The notes below the pieces were generated by a model. It made no database searches. It was not told the origin of the DNA and saw nothing but the letters and a program-made list of their open reading frames with translations. The position numbers and the translations under genes are program-made. From Promethearchaeota archaeon Loki_b32 (GTDB lineage Archaea > Asgardarchaeota > Lokiarchaeia > Sigyniarchaeales > SOKP01), in assembly GCA_005223125.1 (NCBI GenBank), contig NJBH01000003.1:96001-160000 (forward strand): a DNA stretch of 64,000 bases. The letters run 5' to 3'. This document shows, piece after piece, positions 4,910 through 11,103 of the stretch. How positions within the stretch are numbered: the first letter of the stretch is position 1; each line of letters begins with the position of its first letter.

Positions 4910-5413
4910 ATGGCTCAATCGGAGGATAGTAAACTGTTTAGCTGTCCAAAATGCGGAACACAGGGTGCTATTATTTTTCTAAAAGCTGAGGGAAATAAAA
5001 TTATTGTAAAACAAAAATGCCCAAAGCATGGAGTGAGAAGTTTTAATATTCCTTTAATGCAAAAAAATCGTTTTATTCCTCATTTTCGTGATGGGGTTTT
5101 TCGGTGTTATCAATGCGGACAAGAAGCTACAGTTATAAGTTCAAAAGCATCAGGTCCTTGGATGTTAATAAAATGTGCTTGTCCAACTCATGGAAACAAA
5201 TTGCCTCTACAAAGAATTTGGAGTACTGTTTACACCGATATTTCTAATAAGGACGCCCCAGCACCACAATCAGTTCAACCACAATCAGTTCAACCACAAT
5301 CAGTTCAACCTCAACCTGCTCCAAGTGACGAAAAGAAGTTTTGTCCTAATTGTGGAACACCACTAAGTGGAACAGATAAACATTGCGACGCTTGTGGCTC
5401 AGAAATAAATTAA
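4910..5413 (+). CDS. Zinc-ribbon protein: two CxxC-x21-CPxHG modules plus a C-terminal double CxxC ribbon
   Basis: CPKC...CPKHG, CYQC...CPTHG, FCPNCG...HCDACG. Confidence 0.8.
   Translation: MAQSEDSKLFSCPKCGTQGAIIFLKAEGNKIIVKQKCPKHGVRSFNIPLMQKNRFIPHFRDGVFRCYQCGQEATVISSKASGPWMLIKCACPTHGNKLPLQRIWSTVYTDISNKDAPAPQSVQPQSVQPQSVQPQPAPSDEKKFCPNCGTPLSGTDKHCDACGSEIN
5264..5308 (+). repeat. Perfect 15-bp tandem repeat x3 (CCACAATCAGTTCAA) encoding a PQSVQ linker
   Basis: Read directly from the sequence. Confidence 0.95.
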
Positions 5414-5451: not shown

Positions 5452-5811
5452 TTAAAAAAATGCATCCATCTTTTTAATTCCCTTTATTTCTTCATAAGTA
5501 ATACCTAGTGGATCTAAGACTTGCTCAAGAGCAGAAATAAGAAGGTCTCTATATTTTTTAATATCTATATCTTGGAGTTTAGCTAGTTCAAGTGCCCTTG
5601 CTCCAATGGATCCCTTACTCTTGATAAAACTTATTGTTTCACCATTTTGGAATTCTTTTCCAGTAGTATTTTTTAATTATAATGCAGCTTTTACATGTTG
5701 AGGAATAACTTTTGTGTAATTTTTAAGAGCCTTCTGTAAGCCAATGTTAATAGCATAATCTTCTAAAGTGAAAGTATTTGGTTTCCCTATCTTCTTTAGA
5801 TTATCTCTTAT
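5452..5811 (-). pseudogene. Orphan 3' fragment of family B DNA polymerase PolB1 (120 codons, no start, internal TAA at 5677-5679)
   Basis: Translates IRDNLKKIGKPNTFTLEDYAINIGLQKALKNYTKVIPQHVKAAL*LKNTTGKEFQNGETISFIKSKGSIGARALELAKLQDIDIKKYRDLLISALEQVLDPLGITYEEIKGIKKMDAFF; aligns without gaps to polB1 8550..8224. Confidence 0.93.
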
Positions 5812-5821
5812 AAAATAAAAT

Positions 5822-6832
5822 TTAATTTTTTTCAATAAAATCTAATAATGTTGGAGTTCTTTTTAATTCATAAATTTCTTCAATAAATCTTTTCAAATGA
5901 TTAACTAAATTTTTATATTTTATGATATAATTTCCTTGTTCTTCATTGTTAATTGCATAATTTAATTTTACAAACATTTCCATCGCGTCAATTACCCAAC
6001 TTCTTTTTGGAGCTACAAATTGCCTTTCATCATTCGCATGATAGTCCGAGAATTGAGTTCTTAGCCTTTCTGTTAAGTCATCGATATTCACTCGTATCTC
6101 GATTATTTTAATCCCTTTAGATTCCATAAATTCTTCCATTTGTGGATATTGATTAAAAATTCTCGTCCATAAAATTTCCATAGTATATGCAACATTCGGT
6201 TTTACATCATAAAACTTTATTGGATAACGAGGTATTACCTTATTTAATGGAACAAATACAATTGTGCGAAATTTTTCATCTAGATTAACGTCTGTCAAAT
6301 TTCCATATCCTTTTTCTAATGCTAAAGCATAATTGACACCGTAATCTCTATGAAAAGCAATTACAGCAAAATTTTTATTAAAAATCAGCTCCTTTTTCTG
6401 AGATAGATAATCACTTACATGAACTTTCATTCTATAGTGCGTCAAAAGTATGATATCAAAATTATCAATTAATTCATTCTCTGTTTTCCATCCTTTAAGA
6501 TCATCATCATATTTTTGTAATTGTTCAAAATCGTCTTTCCAATGTTCTCTATTTCTGGGAAATGATATTTTTGCTTCACTTAAAATACCATACTCTTCAT
6601 TTAATTGAAGAACCAAATCAGGTATAATTGTATTTTCAGGATTTATACGATTTACCTTTGAGGTATCCATCCTTCGGGCAATAAAACTATACGTATTAGA
6701 TTTGAAATCCATATTCTCATCATCCCATCTTATTACATGAGAAAAACAAATAATTGCTTCTAATGTTTGTTTATAATTATCTATATTCTCTAAGATTTTT
6801 TTAATTCCTCTATTAATTTTGTCTTCTGGCAT
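5822..6832 (-). CDS. Putative PD-(D/E)XK endonuclease, with possible C-terminal winged helix and PIP-like tail
   Basis: IIPDLVLQ...SEAKIS...EQLQKYDD matches the PD...ExK...QxxxY pattern; ends TPTLLDFIEKN. Confidence 0.65.
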   Translation of the reverse strand: MPEDKINRGIKKILENIDNYKQTLEAIICFSHVIRWDDENMDFKSNTYSFIARRMDTSKVNRINPENTIIPDLVLQLNEEYGILSEAKISFPRNREHWKDDFEQLQKYDDDLKGWKTENELIDNFDIILLTHYRMKVHVSDYLSQKKELIFNKNFAVIAFHRDYGVNYALALEKGYGNLTDVNLDEKFRTIVFVPLNKVIPRYPIKFYDVKPNVAYTMEILWTRIFNQYPQMEEFMESKGIKIIEIRVNIDDLTERLRTQFSDYHANDERQFVAPKRSWVIDAMEMFVKLNYAINNEEQGNYIIKYKNLVNHLKRFIEEIYELKRTPTLLDFIEKN

Positions 6833-6833
6833 T

Positions 6834-7955
6834 TTAAGAATAAAAGTCTTTAATAATTCCTTCTCGAAACCAAATAAATATAAAATTACATAATCTTACT
6901 AATGATGCATAAGTAGATCTCATTTGTGGAACAATTGTTATTTTATTATCAGAAAGAATCCAAATATCATAGGAAGAACCATCTCTAAAATCATTGAAAG
7001 AACAATGTAGATATGGATTTAGGTGATAAATAGAAAGAGATGAATATGTGATTTTTTGGAGTGCTTCAATTAATTTCTTATTTTGTTTTTTATCTTTAAA
7101 AACATCAATATTATATTTAATAACGACTGGTTTAGTTTTCAGATTTTCTTCTTTTGTACGTTCTCTATTGTCTAAGATTTTTATATCCGAAGTTACTTTT
7201 GAAATGATATCTCTGACTATATTATTATAAAAAAATCCAAACATTTTATTGCATCTAAAAAATGCATAACGAGAAATTTTACATTTCACATCACTATATA
7301 TATATTTCTTTCTATCATCTTCAAAAGGTTTAATCAAAGTAAATTCAATATAATTAATCCATTCATCATTTTCTCTAGCTTCTTGAAATAATTCTTCGAA
7401 AGGACGATCTGTAAACTTCACTTCTATCTCAAATTCTCGCCTAGCATATTCTTGGACAATTCTGGCTTGTTTTGATAAATGTCGTACTTGTATTTTGGAG
7501 TTTTCTAGTTTTTTCTCTAAATGATGCAGAATTTTTTCCAAATAATTCGAATCTAAAAAAAATCTAGAGATTTTAGGGTAAAATTTATCAAAAAAACTTA
7601 TTATATCATAATGAAAATTTCTATATTTTTCATGAGTGATAAGAATATAAATATTGGGTGTTTTATGTTTAAAAAGGATAAATCTACTAATTCTTGCTTT
7701 CTTACTACCTCTAATTATTTTTGTTAAATTAAATGAATAAATATTCTCTCCCAATTCCTTCTTTTTATATGTAAAATTTTTTAGATTTAAAGTTTCTAAG
7801 ATCTCAAAAATATCAAATTTTGAAGTCAGTATAAGAGTATAAAATTCTTCTCCTATATTTGATAAAATAGATGTTATAGTCTGAATTATTGAATTAATAT
7901 CTTTCTTTTCAATATCATAAAGCCAAGAAAGTGGATCTTCTCTTTTTTTTAACAT
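6834..7955 (-). CDS. Hypothetical protein, coupled to the downstream nuclease
   Basis: 373-aa ORF whose stop is 1 nt from the next ATG; no family recognised. Confidence 0.8.
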   Translation of the reverse strand: MLKKREDPLSWLYDIEKKDINSIIQTITSILSNIGEEFYTLILTSKFDIFEILETLNLKNFTYKKKELGENIYSFNLTKIIRGSKKARISRFILFKHKTPNIYILITHEKYRNFHYDIISFFDKFYPKISRFFLDSNYLEKILHHLEKKLENSKIQVRHLSKQARIVQEYARREFEIEVKFTDRPFEELFQEARENDEWINYIEFTLIKPFEDDRKKYIYSDVKCKISRYAFFRCNKMFGFFYNNIVRDIISKVTSDIKILDNRERTKEENLKTKPVVIKYNIDVFKDKKQNKKLIEALQKITYSSLSIYHLNPYLHCSFNDFRDGSSYDIWILSDNKITIVPQMRSTYASLVRLCNFIFIWFREGIIKDFYS

Positions 7956-8160
7956 TATTTACTATCTATAATAATTAGAATCAAAATATAAATTTTAATT
8001 TAAAGTCAATATTTATTATTTTTTTCATATTACTCCAAACTTAAATAAATATCTAGACTATTAGAGTTCTCTCATTTTTTAATGTATATTTGTCTTTACA
8101 CATTCTTATGATATTTAACTTGGATTTATTTAAATCTTTAATGATTATTTAAAAAATGAA

Positions 8161-11103
8161 TTAAAAAAGTGTTTTTTGAACACTTGGTTCTGCTTCTTCT
8201 TTCTTTTTATACTCTTTTAAAGTAATTTCTTCATATTCAATACCTAAAGCATCAAACAACTGCTCTAATGCTGATTTCAATAAATTTCTATATTTTTTAA
8301 CATTTAAATCTCTAAAACTAGCCAGATCAAAATCTTTAGCTCCAATACTGTCATTGCTTTTGATAAATTTAATATCATCACCTTTTTGATATTCCTTCCC
8401 TGTTATTTTTTTTAGTTCGTTAGCAGCTCTGACATGTTGCGGTATTGTTTTCTCATAAGATTTAAGAGATTTTTGTAATGTTATATAAATTGCATAGTCT
8501 TCTAAAGGAAATTCATCTTCCTTACCTATTTTTTTTCTATTAGCCTTTATAATTTCGATTATAGATTTTCGGGCTTTTAAAAAATCATCATCTGATTTTA
8601 CATTTTTTAATATATCAATTACTTGTCGAAATACTTTCTTAATAAATTCAGGTGTATTTTTTTTTTTAGCTAAGACTCCTTTCATATCAATGTATTTAGT
8701 ATTTTTATAGATACCAACATAATTTTTCTTTCTTTTAGATAATGCTAGAAATTGATAAGTTTTTTCCTCCTCCAAATCAAGATCTAGTTCATTTTTACTC
8801 CATTCAGATAATTGTCTCATTTGATCTTTTGTTGGATTTCTAAGAAAGACAGAATCTGTATCACCATATAATACTTCTATTCCTAATTCTTCTGATTTTT
8901 TAATTGTCTGTTTAATGGAATATTGTCCTATTGAAGTTGTACTTTCAGCCACCGGAAGGCAAAAAAGAGGAAAATTCTTAGATCCAAAAACACCATATGA
9001 ACCATTAATAAAAACTTTAAGAGCTTGTTGAATCGTTTGATAATAACTTCTTTGTTTTTCTGTTAAATTTTTATCACCAGATTTAGGTTTAAAATATTTT
9101 ACTCTTATATCTCGGAAAAAGCCTACGACATATGCAAAGATTCCCATTTTTTGAGTACATATATAGTAGGGGGTTCCTTTTACAAGATTATCTTCATCAT
9201 CCTTATGTGGACACAAAACTGTTTCATATGATAAATTATATTCCTTGATAATGGAAGGATATAGGCTAGCAAAATCCATAACAACGACATCGAAATGAAT
9301 ACCAGGAACAGGTGGAACAACATATGCCCCAGCAAATGTTTTTCCTTCGATAACAGCTTTTGAATATCCTCCTGTTTTTAATTCTGCAATTTCAGATCTA
9401 CGAGGTATAAGATATTTGTTTCTCCTGTGTTCAAAATAAAAAATATTCTGAATCCATGTAGATATTTGGCGCCTTACAGTTTCATGAATAGGCATTTTAG
9501 TAATTCGGCATAATAATAAAATTAAATTCCATACTAATGAATTATTAAATTTAGTTAATTCTAATGTAAGTATTGAATCTTTTAGATTATACCATGTAAG
9601 TATATCATATTCCATTTCGTGTATTTCTTCTTCATGTTCATATTTTTTTTCTCCCAATAGCGCTTCACTTATTGCGTTTAATGAACTGCTTTCATATGCT
9701 CCACCAAATGCATATCCAGAAATACTTCTATTAAAGAAGAAATTAAAGAGATCAATATGGATTCCTTTTCTTAGATCACAGTCAGATCTTGATAGAAAAC
9801 CAAAGCCTCTCTTAACATGGATGGGATTTAAATCTTTATTTATTTTTAACTTATTTGCTCTATGAAACATATAATTTAAGTCAAAATTATCACCATTGAA
9901 TGTGATAATTACAGGATATTCCCATAAAAGACGAAAGGATTCTGTCAATAATTCCTTTTCGCTTTTAAAGAATATAACTTCTGCATCAGATGGAAATTTT
10001 TTATGAAGTCCACGAAAAGCAAATCCTTCTCGTTCTAGTACATAAACTAATTTTAGTCCATCCGAAGCCACAAATGATATACTGATAATTGCTTGTTTTG
10101 CCTGACGAGGATCTGGAATAACAAAATCTTCTGATCCTATACTTACTTCGATATCCATAGCTAACCGTTTCACATCTGGAATCGGAGTGAGAAATATATC
10201 TAAAAACTTTTCCGAAAATTCTTGGATTTCTGGAGATTCATTTTTAAATAGAGCGCGCAATTCTTTTGCCATTCTCTTTGATTCTTCTGAAACCTCTTCA
10301 AAACTTAACTTTTTGATTTGACCACCCTGAATACTATAAATTAATCCAGGAATTAGTTGTCTATCGAAAATATAGTTTAAGTGATATCTAATGTCTGCTT
10401 CCCAAGCTTTTTTATTATTTTTACTTAAAATATTTCTGATATTTGTACCAGAACCTCCAATATCCGAAGGAGTTTTACCATATATTTTTGTCATCGATAT
10501 TTTTTTATCTTTTAGTAGATCTATTTTCTCTATTTCTTCAAATCTAGTAAAACCTTCATATTCTGTTAATTCTATCATATTTTGTAAATCTGTTAGCGTT
10601 TCCTTACTTAAACAATAAGGTTCATGGTCGGTTGTATCAATCCAAATCTTTATATCATCGGTTTCCAAATCATAAAATTTACAGTATGCTTTATTTTGTC
10701 CACCATCATAGTTAACATCAAGCAATATTCCTCGTTCCATATCTTCAACGATTTCTCCTTTTTCAATAAGGTATCGAATATATGTTGAAGAAACATTTTC
10801 TCGTAAAACCTTGGTTAATCTGATATTTCCTTCTTTTAAGCCAAAAAGTTCATTATTTCCTTTAAAAAATAAATTTGAAGGTATTTCTTTTGTAATTTTC
10901 TCTGCTTTTGGAGTTGGTTCTTTAGTTTTCTCTTCTTTTATAATTTTTGGCTTAGCTTTAGGTTTTTCTTCTTTATATTTTTCAGTCTTTACTACTTTTG
11001 GTGTTTCTGGGGATTTTACTTTTTTCTGCTCTTTATCGCTAACAAAGGAAAAAAGCGAGGTTTGTTCCTTATCATTTAGTTTTTTCTTTTTTGGAGGTGG
11101 CAT
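8161..11103 (-). CDS. polB1: Family B DNA polymerase, PolB1 type
   Basis: Exonuclease motifs AMDIEV, FNGDNFD and YNLKD; polymerase motifs DFASLYPSII, KVFINGSYG, YGDTDS and KKNY; N-terminal PIP-like QTSLFSF. Confidence 0.93.
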   Translation of the reverse strand: MPPPKKKKLNDKEQTSLFSFVSDKEQKKVKSPETPKVVKTEKYKEEKPKAKPKIIKEEKTKEPTPKAEKITKEIPSNLFFKGNNELFGLKEGNIRLTKVLRENVSSTYIRYLIEKGEIVEDMERGILLDVNYDGGQNKAYCKFYDLETDDIKIWIDTTDHEPYCLSKETLTDLQNMIELTEYEGFTRFEEIEKIDLLKDKKISMTKIYGKTPSDIGGSGTNIRNILSKNNKKAWEADIRYHLNYIFDRQLIPGLIYSIQGGQIKKLSFEEVSEESKRMAKELRALFKNESPEIQEFSEKFLDIFLTPIPDVKRLAMDIEVSIGSEDFVIPDPRQAKQAIISISFVASDGLKLVYVLEREGFAFRGLHKKFPSDAEVIFFKSEKELLTESFRLLWEYPVIITFNGDNFDLNYMFHRANKLKINKDLNPIHVKRGFGFLSRSDCDLRKGIHIDLFNFFFNRSISGYAFGGAYESSSLNAISEALLGEKKYEHEEEIHEMEYDILTWYNLKDSILTLELTKFNNSLVWNLILLLCRITKMPIHETVRRQISTWIQNIFYFEHRRNKYLIPRRSEIAELKTGGYSKAVIEGKTFAGAYVVPPVPGIHFDVVVMDFASLYPSIIKEYNLSYETVLCPHKDDEDNLVKGTPYYICTQKMGIFAYVVGFFRDIRVKYFKPKSGDKNLTEKQRSYYQTIQQALKVFINGSYGVFGSKNFPLFCLPVAESTTSIGQYSIKQTIKKSEELGIEVLYGDTDSVFLRNPTKDQMRQLSEWSKNELDLDLEEEKTYQFLALSKRKKNYVGIYKNTKYIDMKGVLAKKKNTPEFIKKVFRQVIDILKNVKSDDDFLKARKSIIEIIKANRKKIGKEDEFPLEDYAIYITLQKSLKSYEKTIPQHVRAANELKKITGKEYQKGDDIKFIKSNDSIGAKDFDLASFRDLNVKKYRNLLKSALEQLFDALGIEYEEITLKEYKKKEEAEPSVQKTLF

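Follow-up and report, generated by a model that had tools for sequence, protein, structure and literature searches.

The polB1 locus and its two 3' ends

We analysed a 64,000-nucleotide (nt) stretch of DNA from Promethearchaeota archaeon Loki_b32 (contig NJBH01000003.1, positions 96,001 to 160,000), referred to below as the window. In it polB1, the gene for a family-B DNA polymerase, is followed on the minus strand by a cassette of two genes and then by a second, start-less copy of its own 3' end, which we call the orphan. The host assembly is metagenome-assembled (95.5% complete, 4.6% contamination), and the locus sits on a 228-kb contig. The features are as follows (aa, amino acids; ORF, open reading frame).

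8161..11103, minus strand: polB1, a chimeric but intact family-B DNA polymerase gene of 980 aa (Pfam DNA_pol_B 2e-47, exonuclease 5e-24; mosaic identity profile)
8918..11103, minus strand: native 5' part of polB1, codons 1 to ~729 (grouping with the congeners G001, G003 and G088; 1/118 informative sites donor-like)
9000..9001, minus strand: motif-B intein insertion site FING/SYG, codons 701/702, native and unrecoded here (the position of inteins in G147, G155, G043 and G028)
8161..8917, minus strand: foreign 3' end of polB1, from codon ~730 to 980, whose C-terminus is longer and ends in QKTLF (126/156 informative sites donor-like; tail clade)
7956..8160, no strand: AT-rich spacer of 205 nt, common to a second host (92-97% identical in G107)
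6834..7955, minus strand: 373-aa ORF with an RdgC/Iml3-like fold and a KA1-like C-terminal domain, the predicted nuclease partner
5822..6832, minus strand: 336-aa ORF for a PD-(D/E)XK nuclease that has a winged-helix domain and, at its C-terminus, a PIP-box-like motif
5809..5821, no strand: junction of cassette and orphan, without homology and shared by all carriers (at most one base different in L043, L035 and L265-L268)
5452..5811, minus strand: orphan native polB1 3' end, start-less, 120 codons from ~853 to the stop, with one TAA

This gene order is the one given in a preliminary description of the DNA, whose comparison of the two tails proved exact upon recomputation: 68/109 codons are identical in a gap-free alignment, and the single lesion of the orphan is a TAA at 5677-5679, where the active gene has GAA (Glu896). 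The match of the orphan to polB1 is far beyond chance (tblastn, E 2e-35). Named homologues of the polymerase come from Promethearchaeota/Lokiarchaeia, and the host is accordingly taken as an Asgard archaeon of the Loki type. The same description had proposed that the orphan is the native end of the gene and the active tail the foreign one, and this is what we find. Ten congeners end in KKMDAFF or KKLDAFF, as does the orphan, and amino acid identity to them is 83-92/109 (76-84%) for the orphan and 66-71/109 (61-65%) for the active tail. In a tree of the polB1 front, the window groups with G001, G003 and G088; in a tree of the tails, the orphan groups with two of these sisters, G088 and G001, nearest to G088 (87% nt identity), and the active tail is placed elsewhere. 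Forcing the orphan and the active tail together costs 122 log-likelihood units (approximately unbiased (AU) test, p 1e-5), so that a local duplication with later divergence, which the preliminary description had also considered ill-fitting, is rejected. The active tail as the native polB1 end is likewise rejected (AU p 1e-7). The orphan also occupies the native position, ahead of a Zn-ribbon gene. It differs from the G088 gene by 25 synonymous and 14 non-synonymous codons, and two intact genes differ by 24 and 14; since this mix matches that of intact genes, the orphan fell out of use recently.

The foreign part of polB1 is longer than first thought. The affected region had been given as 5452-8550; its orphan end stands, but its upper limit does not. 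With the second carrier as the reference for donor-like sites, the change at codon 729 places the crossover at 8920-8914 (codons 728-730), ~370 nt upstream of 8550. The crossover lies ~85 nt downstream of the motif-B site, and the site itself is native. The orphan lacks native codons ~730-852 (~370 nt) and begins to match native sequence at ~5808. The orphan thus begins at codon ~853, ~150 codons beyond the motif-B site, and so not at a cleavage site there. Among short proteins, no closer donor of the foreign tail was found above 80%.

The same arrangement is found in a second host. Genome G107 (locus L043) and the assemblies L035 and L266-L268 have the same tail type, both cassette genes and the same right junction, and L265 is a third version of the arrangement; the junction is thus common to six other assemblies, from other samples. 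Between the window and the second host the two cassette genes are 97.5% and 95.6% identical at the nt level, whereas the polB1 fronts differ at 320/591 codons (65-86% nt identity) and the two orphans at 63/119, with the stop at another place. The earlier suggestion that the two genes arrived together with the tail is upheld: near-identical genes sit in differing hosts with differing polB1 fronts, which shows lateral movement of tail plus cassette. One clade for both hosts is rejected (AU p 3e-4), and with it vertical inheritance from their common ancestor. The cassette was not found in the first 30 relatives examined.

The recurrence of the arrangement and its junction in a second host also excludes a chimera as its origin. 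A metagenome-assembled genome with 4.6% contamination might in principle yield such an artefact, be it an assembly chimera or a duplicated tail that diverged later. Against this stand the junction in six other assemblies, the native synteny on both sides within a 228-kb contig and the rejection of duplication given above; we regard an artefact as extremely improbable.

As the preliminary description had stated, no integrase or transposase ORF is present among the ORFs of the window, and there are no terminal repeats beyond short AT-rich chance matches. The related loci that were scanned have no integrase ORF either. Scans for repeats and promoters stayed at chance level. An integrase-driven element that restores the 3' end of its target gene was considered and rejected, there being neither an integrase ORF nor att-like direct repeats.

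Several further observations concern this locus and its surroundings. The clamp-binding motif of the foreign tail is shortened (window 8161-8190: QKTLF vs native MDAFF). Within the polB1 front, patches at window 9850-10250 are 100% identical at the nt level to G003 (L004-L005), which suggests that congeners have exchanged other short tracts by recombination. Downstream of the orphan, the Zn-ribbon gene (167 aa) contains a short tandem repeat of QPQSV units (5265-5330). A second, distant family-B polymerase gene (27% identity) lies on the same contig at 54759-56105 and is present in most congeners.

Free-standing LAGLIDADG genes behind polB1 in other Lokiarchaeia

A class-wide search for foreign tails and orphans covered 161 genomes and brought up additional examples of both. 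In five of these genomes, scattered over the host tree (G078, G086, G109, G071 and G075), the foreign polB1 tail is followed directly by an oppositely oriented gene for a LAGLIDADG protein with Hint remains; in four of them an orphan lies beyond it. The closest relatives of these free-standing proteins (43-47%) are inteins inserted in polB1 at FING/SYG, codons 701/702. Intein splicing requires the first Cys and the terminal His-Asn. The free proteins have kept both endonuclease blocks; the first Cys and the terminal His-Asn are gone, and they should therefore not splice.

We infer that the target of these endonucleases is the motif-B site. At the protein level the site is recoded in 5/5 endonuclease carriers vs 6/48 non-carriers, and all five independent pairs agree in this association (p 0.0625, the smallest value that five pairs allow). 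The identity break relative to a sister genome falls at the site, at codon 701 in G109 and codon 696 in G078; changepoints were informative for these two genomes, the sisters of G071 and G086 being too distant. G107 and G087, which share the window tail, have the recoded site ASYG, as do G086 and G078.

The tail of the window falls in one clade with the tails of G087, G107 and the endonuclease carriers G086 and G078 (support of 99 in the Shimodaira-Hasegawa-like approximate likelihood ratio test, SH-aLRT). Since it is nested with endonuclease-carrier tails, and since G087 and G107 have the recoded site, the tail belongs to the lineage of these elements. The endonuclease itself has no match in the 95.5% complete window genome, either at the locus or elsewhere. 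Nor is there a remnant of it in the 205-nt spacer, where alignment scores to endonuclease ends stay within the range of shuffled sequence. Viral contigs yielded no free endonuclease and one cassette match, in a provirus-like contig.

These comparisons lead us to the reading that we consider probable: the window holds a derivative, devoid of the endonuclease, of a Lokiarchaeia homing element that replaces gene ends much as the WHO elements of yeasts do, and this derivative was moved by ordinary recombination with defence-like cargo. The preliminary description had been partly right in its overall interpretation, and had missed the probable descent from a homing-type element with an intein-derived LAGLIDADG gene as its putative driver.

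Two other histories bear on the same evidence. In the first, no endonuclease was ever involved: a donor with a native cassette behind its polB1 would have supplied tail and cassette through a single homology-facilitated illegitimate integration, anchored in polB1 and illegitimate at its right end, followed by homologous spread. This would account for the missing native codons ~730-852, the single shared junction, the native site and a crossover away from it; moreover, extended tails without an element do exist (the G141 clade, see below), and the mechanism has been proposed for orphan arrays elsewhere (PMC5361080). However, it leaves unaccounted the nesting of the tail among endonuclease-bearing ones (SH-aLRT 99) and the recoded site in two of the three carriers of this tail, a state present in just 6/48 non-carriers, and such a donor is absent among the 161 genomes searched. 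We judge this history unlikely.

In the second, a trans-acting or former LAGLIDADG endonuclease would have cut at codons 701/702, and the region of the site would later have been converted back to native sequence. Repair induced by a cut would account both for the crossing of a species gap and for the shortness of the right-hand homology, and two genomes offer parallels: G086 has patchwork sequence after its motif-B site, and in G070 a native tail is followed by an endonuclease remnant. Yet an extra event is needed, the window is native at all but one of the 118 informative sites up to codon 729, and its genome has no endonuclease. This course of events seems to us quite improbable. Since cleavage at the site would usually lead to conversion of the site itself, which in the window is native, ordinary recombination between polB1 arms is the likelier route here.

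Other loci show further forms of these elements. In G086, the endonuclease has two CxxC motifs in an N-terminal fusion, and none are found in the four other carriers; the endonuclease is fused behind a 250-aa Zn-ribbon family (L170:3841-5898), of which stand-alone copies occur in the same genome (C44 and C48, 52% identity), a possible parallel to the zinc-finger fusion of WHO and HO. In G109 (L171:8150-13070), the endonuclease is followed by three further, uncharacterised ORFs (147, 445 and 404 aa) and a frameshifted orphan, so that cargo and driver lie together. In another family (L245; G028:C119:10600-20325), polB1 has an endonuclease-less mini-intein at the motif-B site, and the other strand behind the gene has a free-standing homologous endonuclease, within an open frame of 1021 aa; this could be a case of homing in trans or the birth stage of an element. 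Just behind the polB1 stop of G070 (L236, contig C6), a native-type tail and site precede an endonuclease remnant of ~84 nt and the last 12 codons of an orphan; this is a reverted or decayed element. Finally, a clade of another genus (L174 and L176-L180, in G141, G147, G121, G119, G138 and G145) has an extended tail without an orphan or a free endonuclease, and one of its members, G147, holds an intact intein. The extended tails of this group represent either a donor lineage or a fixed relic.

The two-gene nuclease cassette

The 336-aa protein belongs to the PD-(D/E)XK superfamily, its conserved motif lying on a restriction-like core. P71, D72, E86 and K88 are invariant in 22 homologues (motif PD-x13-ExK); the core spans aa 16-190 (Z 6-9 to restriction-like proteins) and a winged helix aa 210-320. 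Its PIP-like C-terminus (window 5822-5850) is conserved in many archaeal homologues. The fold resembles the Atlas family MJECL32 (TM 0.60), and Foldseek with the nuclease model returned nothing at E below 0.001. The 373-aa protein matches RdgC in Foldseek (E 3e-5, TM 0.29-0.35), with VIA Z scores of 6.7 to RdgC, 7.8 to Iml3/CENP-L and 9.4 to KA1; it is similar to Atlas MJECL33 (TM 0.72-0.78) and more weakly to GAPS4b_N clusters (TM 0.41-0.46). Neither protein could be assigned to a family by sequence searches of Pfam, PADLOC, NCBIfam and PDB. The two are predicted to form a complex (0.86 vs 0.00 for the best control, on a scale whose mark was reached by 58/80 solved and 2/110 mismatched pairs), with at least 89% of contacts in agreement between runs and a predicted local distance difference test (pLDDT) value of at least 85 for the partner.

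The pair is widespread, in archaea and bacteria, and its genes are adjacent in 84 of the 88 testable loci. The preliminary description had asked whether it occurs elsewhere and whether it sits behind polB there. It does occur elsewhere, but only in L043 is a polB1 tail directly upstream (97 loci, 50 of them with at least 1.5 kb of upstream sequence). Its neighbours at other loci include AbiJ, DUF4145, type III restriction-modification genes, prophage and PIN and ParE toxins, and also housekeeping genes; at L259:4865-12157, a homologue has a type III restriction-modification operon on one side and tail genes of a prophage on the other. By analogy, the two genes resemble the GAPS4 defence system in their build, and an anti-virus role is probable.

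In the second-host population the nuclease has two separate nonsense alleles, at codon 269 (L035/L268) and codon 279 (L266/L267), in otherwise near-identical copies; both keep the catalytic domain and truncate the winged helix. Two independent knockouts in one host population fit a costly accessory function.

The preliminary description had named the PD-(D/E)XK nuclease as a candidate homing driver that cuts the resident allele; in the form considered here, the nuclease and its partner together would cut the native polB1 allele site-specifically. An intact catalytic motif, a winged-helix domain, spread of the cassette between species at 96-97% identity and purifying selection (codon differences of 9 synonymous/13 non-synonymous and 19/23) speak in its favour. 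However, homologues lie beside unrelated genes in ~84 loci without a polB1 tail, the crossover varies by host (codon 729 in the window; recoded site at 701 in G107), and the two-subunit architecture resembles a non-selective defence DNase (PMC13748975). Together with the repeated knockouts, this makes a driving role of the nuclease highly improbable, and that part of the earlier interpretation is not supported.

Proposed derivation of the window element and comparison with known systems

The derivation of the window from a WHO-like element can be set out in four steps. Comparison among genomes shows a family of elements behind polB1 made up of a foreign 3' end with a recoded motif-B site, a free LAGLIDADG gene that stems from the motif-B intein but should not splice, and in most cases a displaced native end. 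In one lineage, a one-time illegitimate event would then have replaced the endonuclease gene by the two-gene cassette and, in the same event, deleted the front of the stranded end. Tail and cassette, whose lateral movement is seen in the two hosts, may have entered the window species by two-sided homologous recombination in polB1, with the left crossover at codon ~729 and the right one in the first bases of the orphan. The orphan would have served as the right-hand recombination arm, and the host's own 3' end would have become the new orphan, leaving the essential gene whole. Spread by recombination anchored in polB1, as proposed in the preliminary description, fits these data. Finally, the cassette may act as sensor and effector in the manner of GAPS4, with a nuclease, probably non-specific, docked on a ring protein that binds DNA; the pair would be kept for defence at a cost to the host and be cargo rather than driver.

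Several points weigh against this derivation. No genome has the intermediate, with endonuclease and cassette together. A clade of five genomes in another genus (the G141 group) has the extended tail type but neither endonuclease nor orphan, so that the tail could come from a donor lineage rather than from the element. At the right crossover there would have been only ~15-30 nt of clear shared sequence, little for plain recombination to act on, and a single clade of both orphans stays compatible with the data (AU p 0.30). Similarity to GAPS4b is below TM 0.5 (0.41-0.46), and neither PADLOC nor NCBIfam has a matching family. The proposed cleavage and defence role are predictions.

If the derivation is correct, new genes can enter an Asgard chromosome via the end of an essential gene, with no need for an integrase, and archaea have a form of the gene-end replacement described in the nuclei of yeasts and the mitochondria of fungi. 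The stages of this form would be legible in Lokiarchaeia genomes, as an intein, a free endonuclease, and cargo-loaded, endonuclease-free and reverted elements, and the route from intein to free endonuclease proposed for WHO and HO could be put to the test in a second lineage. Loki polB1 is mosaic in its C-terminal quarter, and trees that use this part may mislead. The analysis also reveals a widespread, uncharacterised two-gene nuclease system that is amenable to laboratory testing. More tentatively, and with rather less confidence than the derivation itself, one may suppose that a WHO-like element leaves a two-armed platform in polB1, which moves between species without an integrase, transposase or endonuclease of its own and ferries an undescribed two-subunit, clamp-binding defence nuclease; this nuclease might even respond to the double-strand breaks that homing endonucleases introduce at this locus. 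In the literature searched, where most subscription papers fell outside, we found no report of such elements in Asgard archaea.

The closest counterparts are the WHO elements of Torulaspora and Lachancea yeasts (Coughlan et al. 2020, PMC7282813; Osborne et al. 2026, 10.64898/2026.08.13.744650). As in WHO, the 3' end of an essential gene is replaced in the window, with discordant 5' and 3' trees, and the stranded 3' fragment comes from the recipient's former end, which in WHO is the downstream recombination arm renewed from the recipient. The non-splicing, intein-derived LAGLIDADG gene and the changed target site of WHO are found in the related Lokiarchaeia listed above (G078, G086, G109, G071 and G075). 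Unlike WHO, the Lokiarchaeia elements reside on an archaeal chromosome and target polB1 rather than FBA1, their endonuclease lies on the opposite strand and is traceable to an intein of the same gene, most lack a zinc finger, and their fragments do not start at the cut site. The window differs further in having no endonuclease, a native target and unrelated cargo in the place of the endonuclease. It thus has a WHO-like layout but falls outside WHO on endonuclease and immune site.

A similar order is known from mobile ORFs (mORFs) of fungal mitochondria, in atp6 of Allomyces macrogynus and in atp6, atp9, cox2 and nad3 of Glomus: a foreign C-terminal gene part, an endonuclease ORF and, downstream, the native C-terminal part, matching close relatives (PMC3630166). 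These are organellar, and their endonuclease is present, often in frame and not intein-derived; multi-gene cargo is not described in the portions of that account considered here. Homology-facilitated illegitimate recombination is proposed to yield orphan 3' ends in Vibrio type VI secretion system and Rhs arrays (PMC5361080), which share with the window a homologous anchor on one side, a non-homologous junction on the other, displaced resident sequence downstream and the lack of an integrase. In the window, however, an essential replication gene provides the anchor, and the tail is part of an endonuclease-associated lineage.

The cassette itself is best compared with GAPS4, an anti-phage system in which a ring-plus-nuclease complex degrades DNA upon sensing damage (PMC13748975; 10.1101/2025.09.07.674715). 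Both have two adjacent genes whose products form a complex, by prediction for the window, with a PD-(D/E)XK subunit docked on its partner; the GAPS4 partner is predicted to be a DNA-encircling ring, like RdgC, and the 373-aa protein of the window is RdgC-like in fold. The two differ in their active sites (PD-x13-ExK vs HGxD-SxK in GAPS4a) and are only distantly similar in fold (TM 0.41-0.46 to GAPS4b clusters); the window nuclease has in addition a winged helix and a PIP-like end, and the nearest Atlas families are the uncharacterised MJECL33 and MJECL32. Because its active-site motif differs, the cassette resembles GAPS4 rather than belonging to it.

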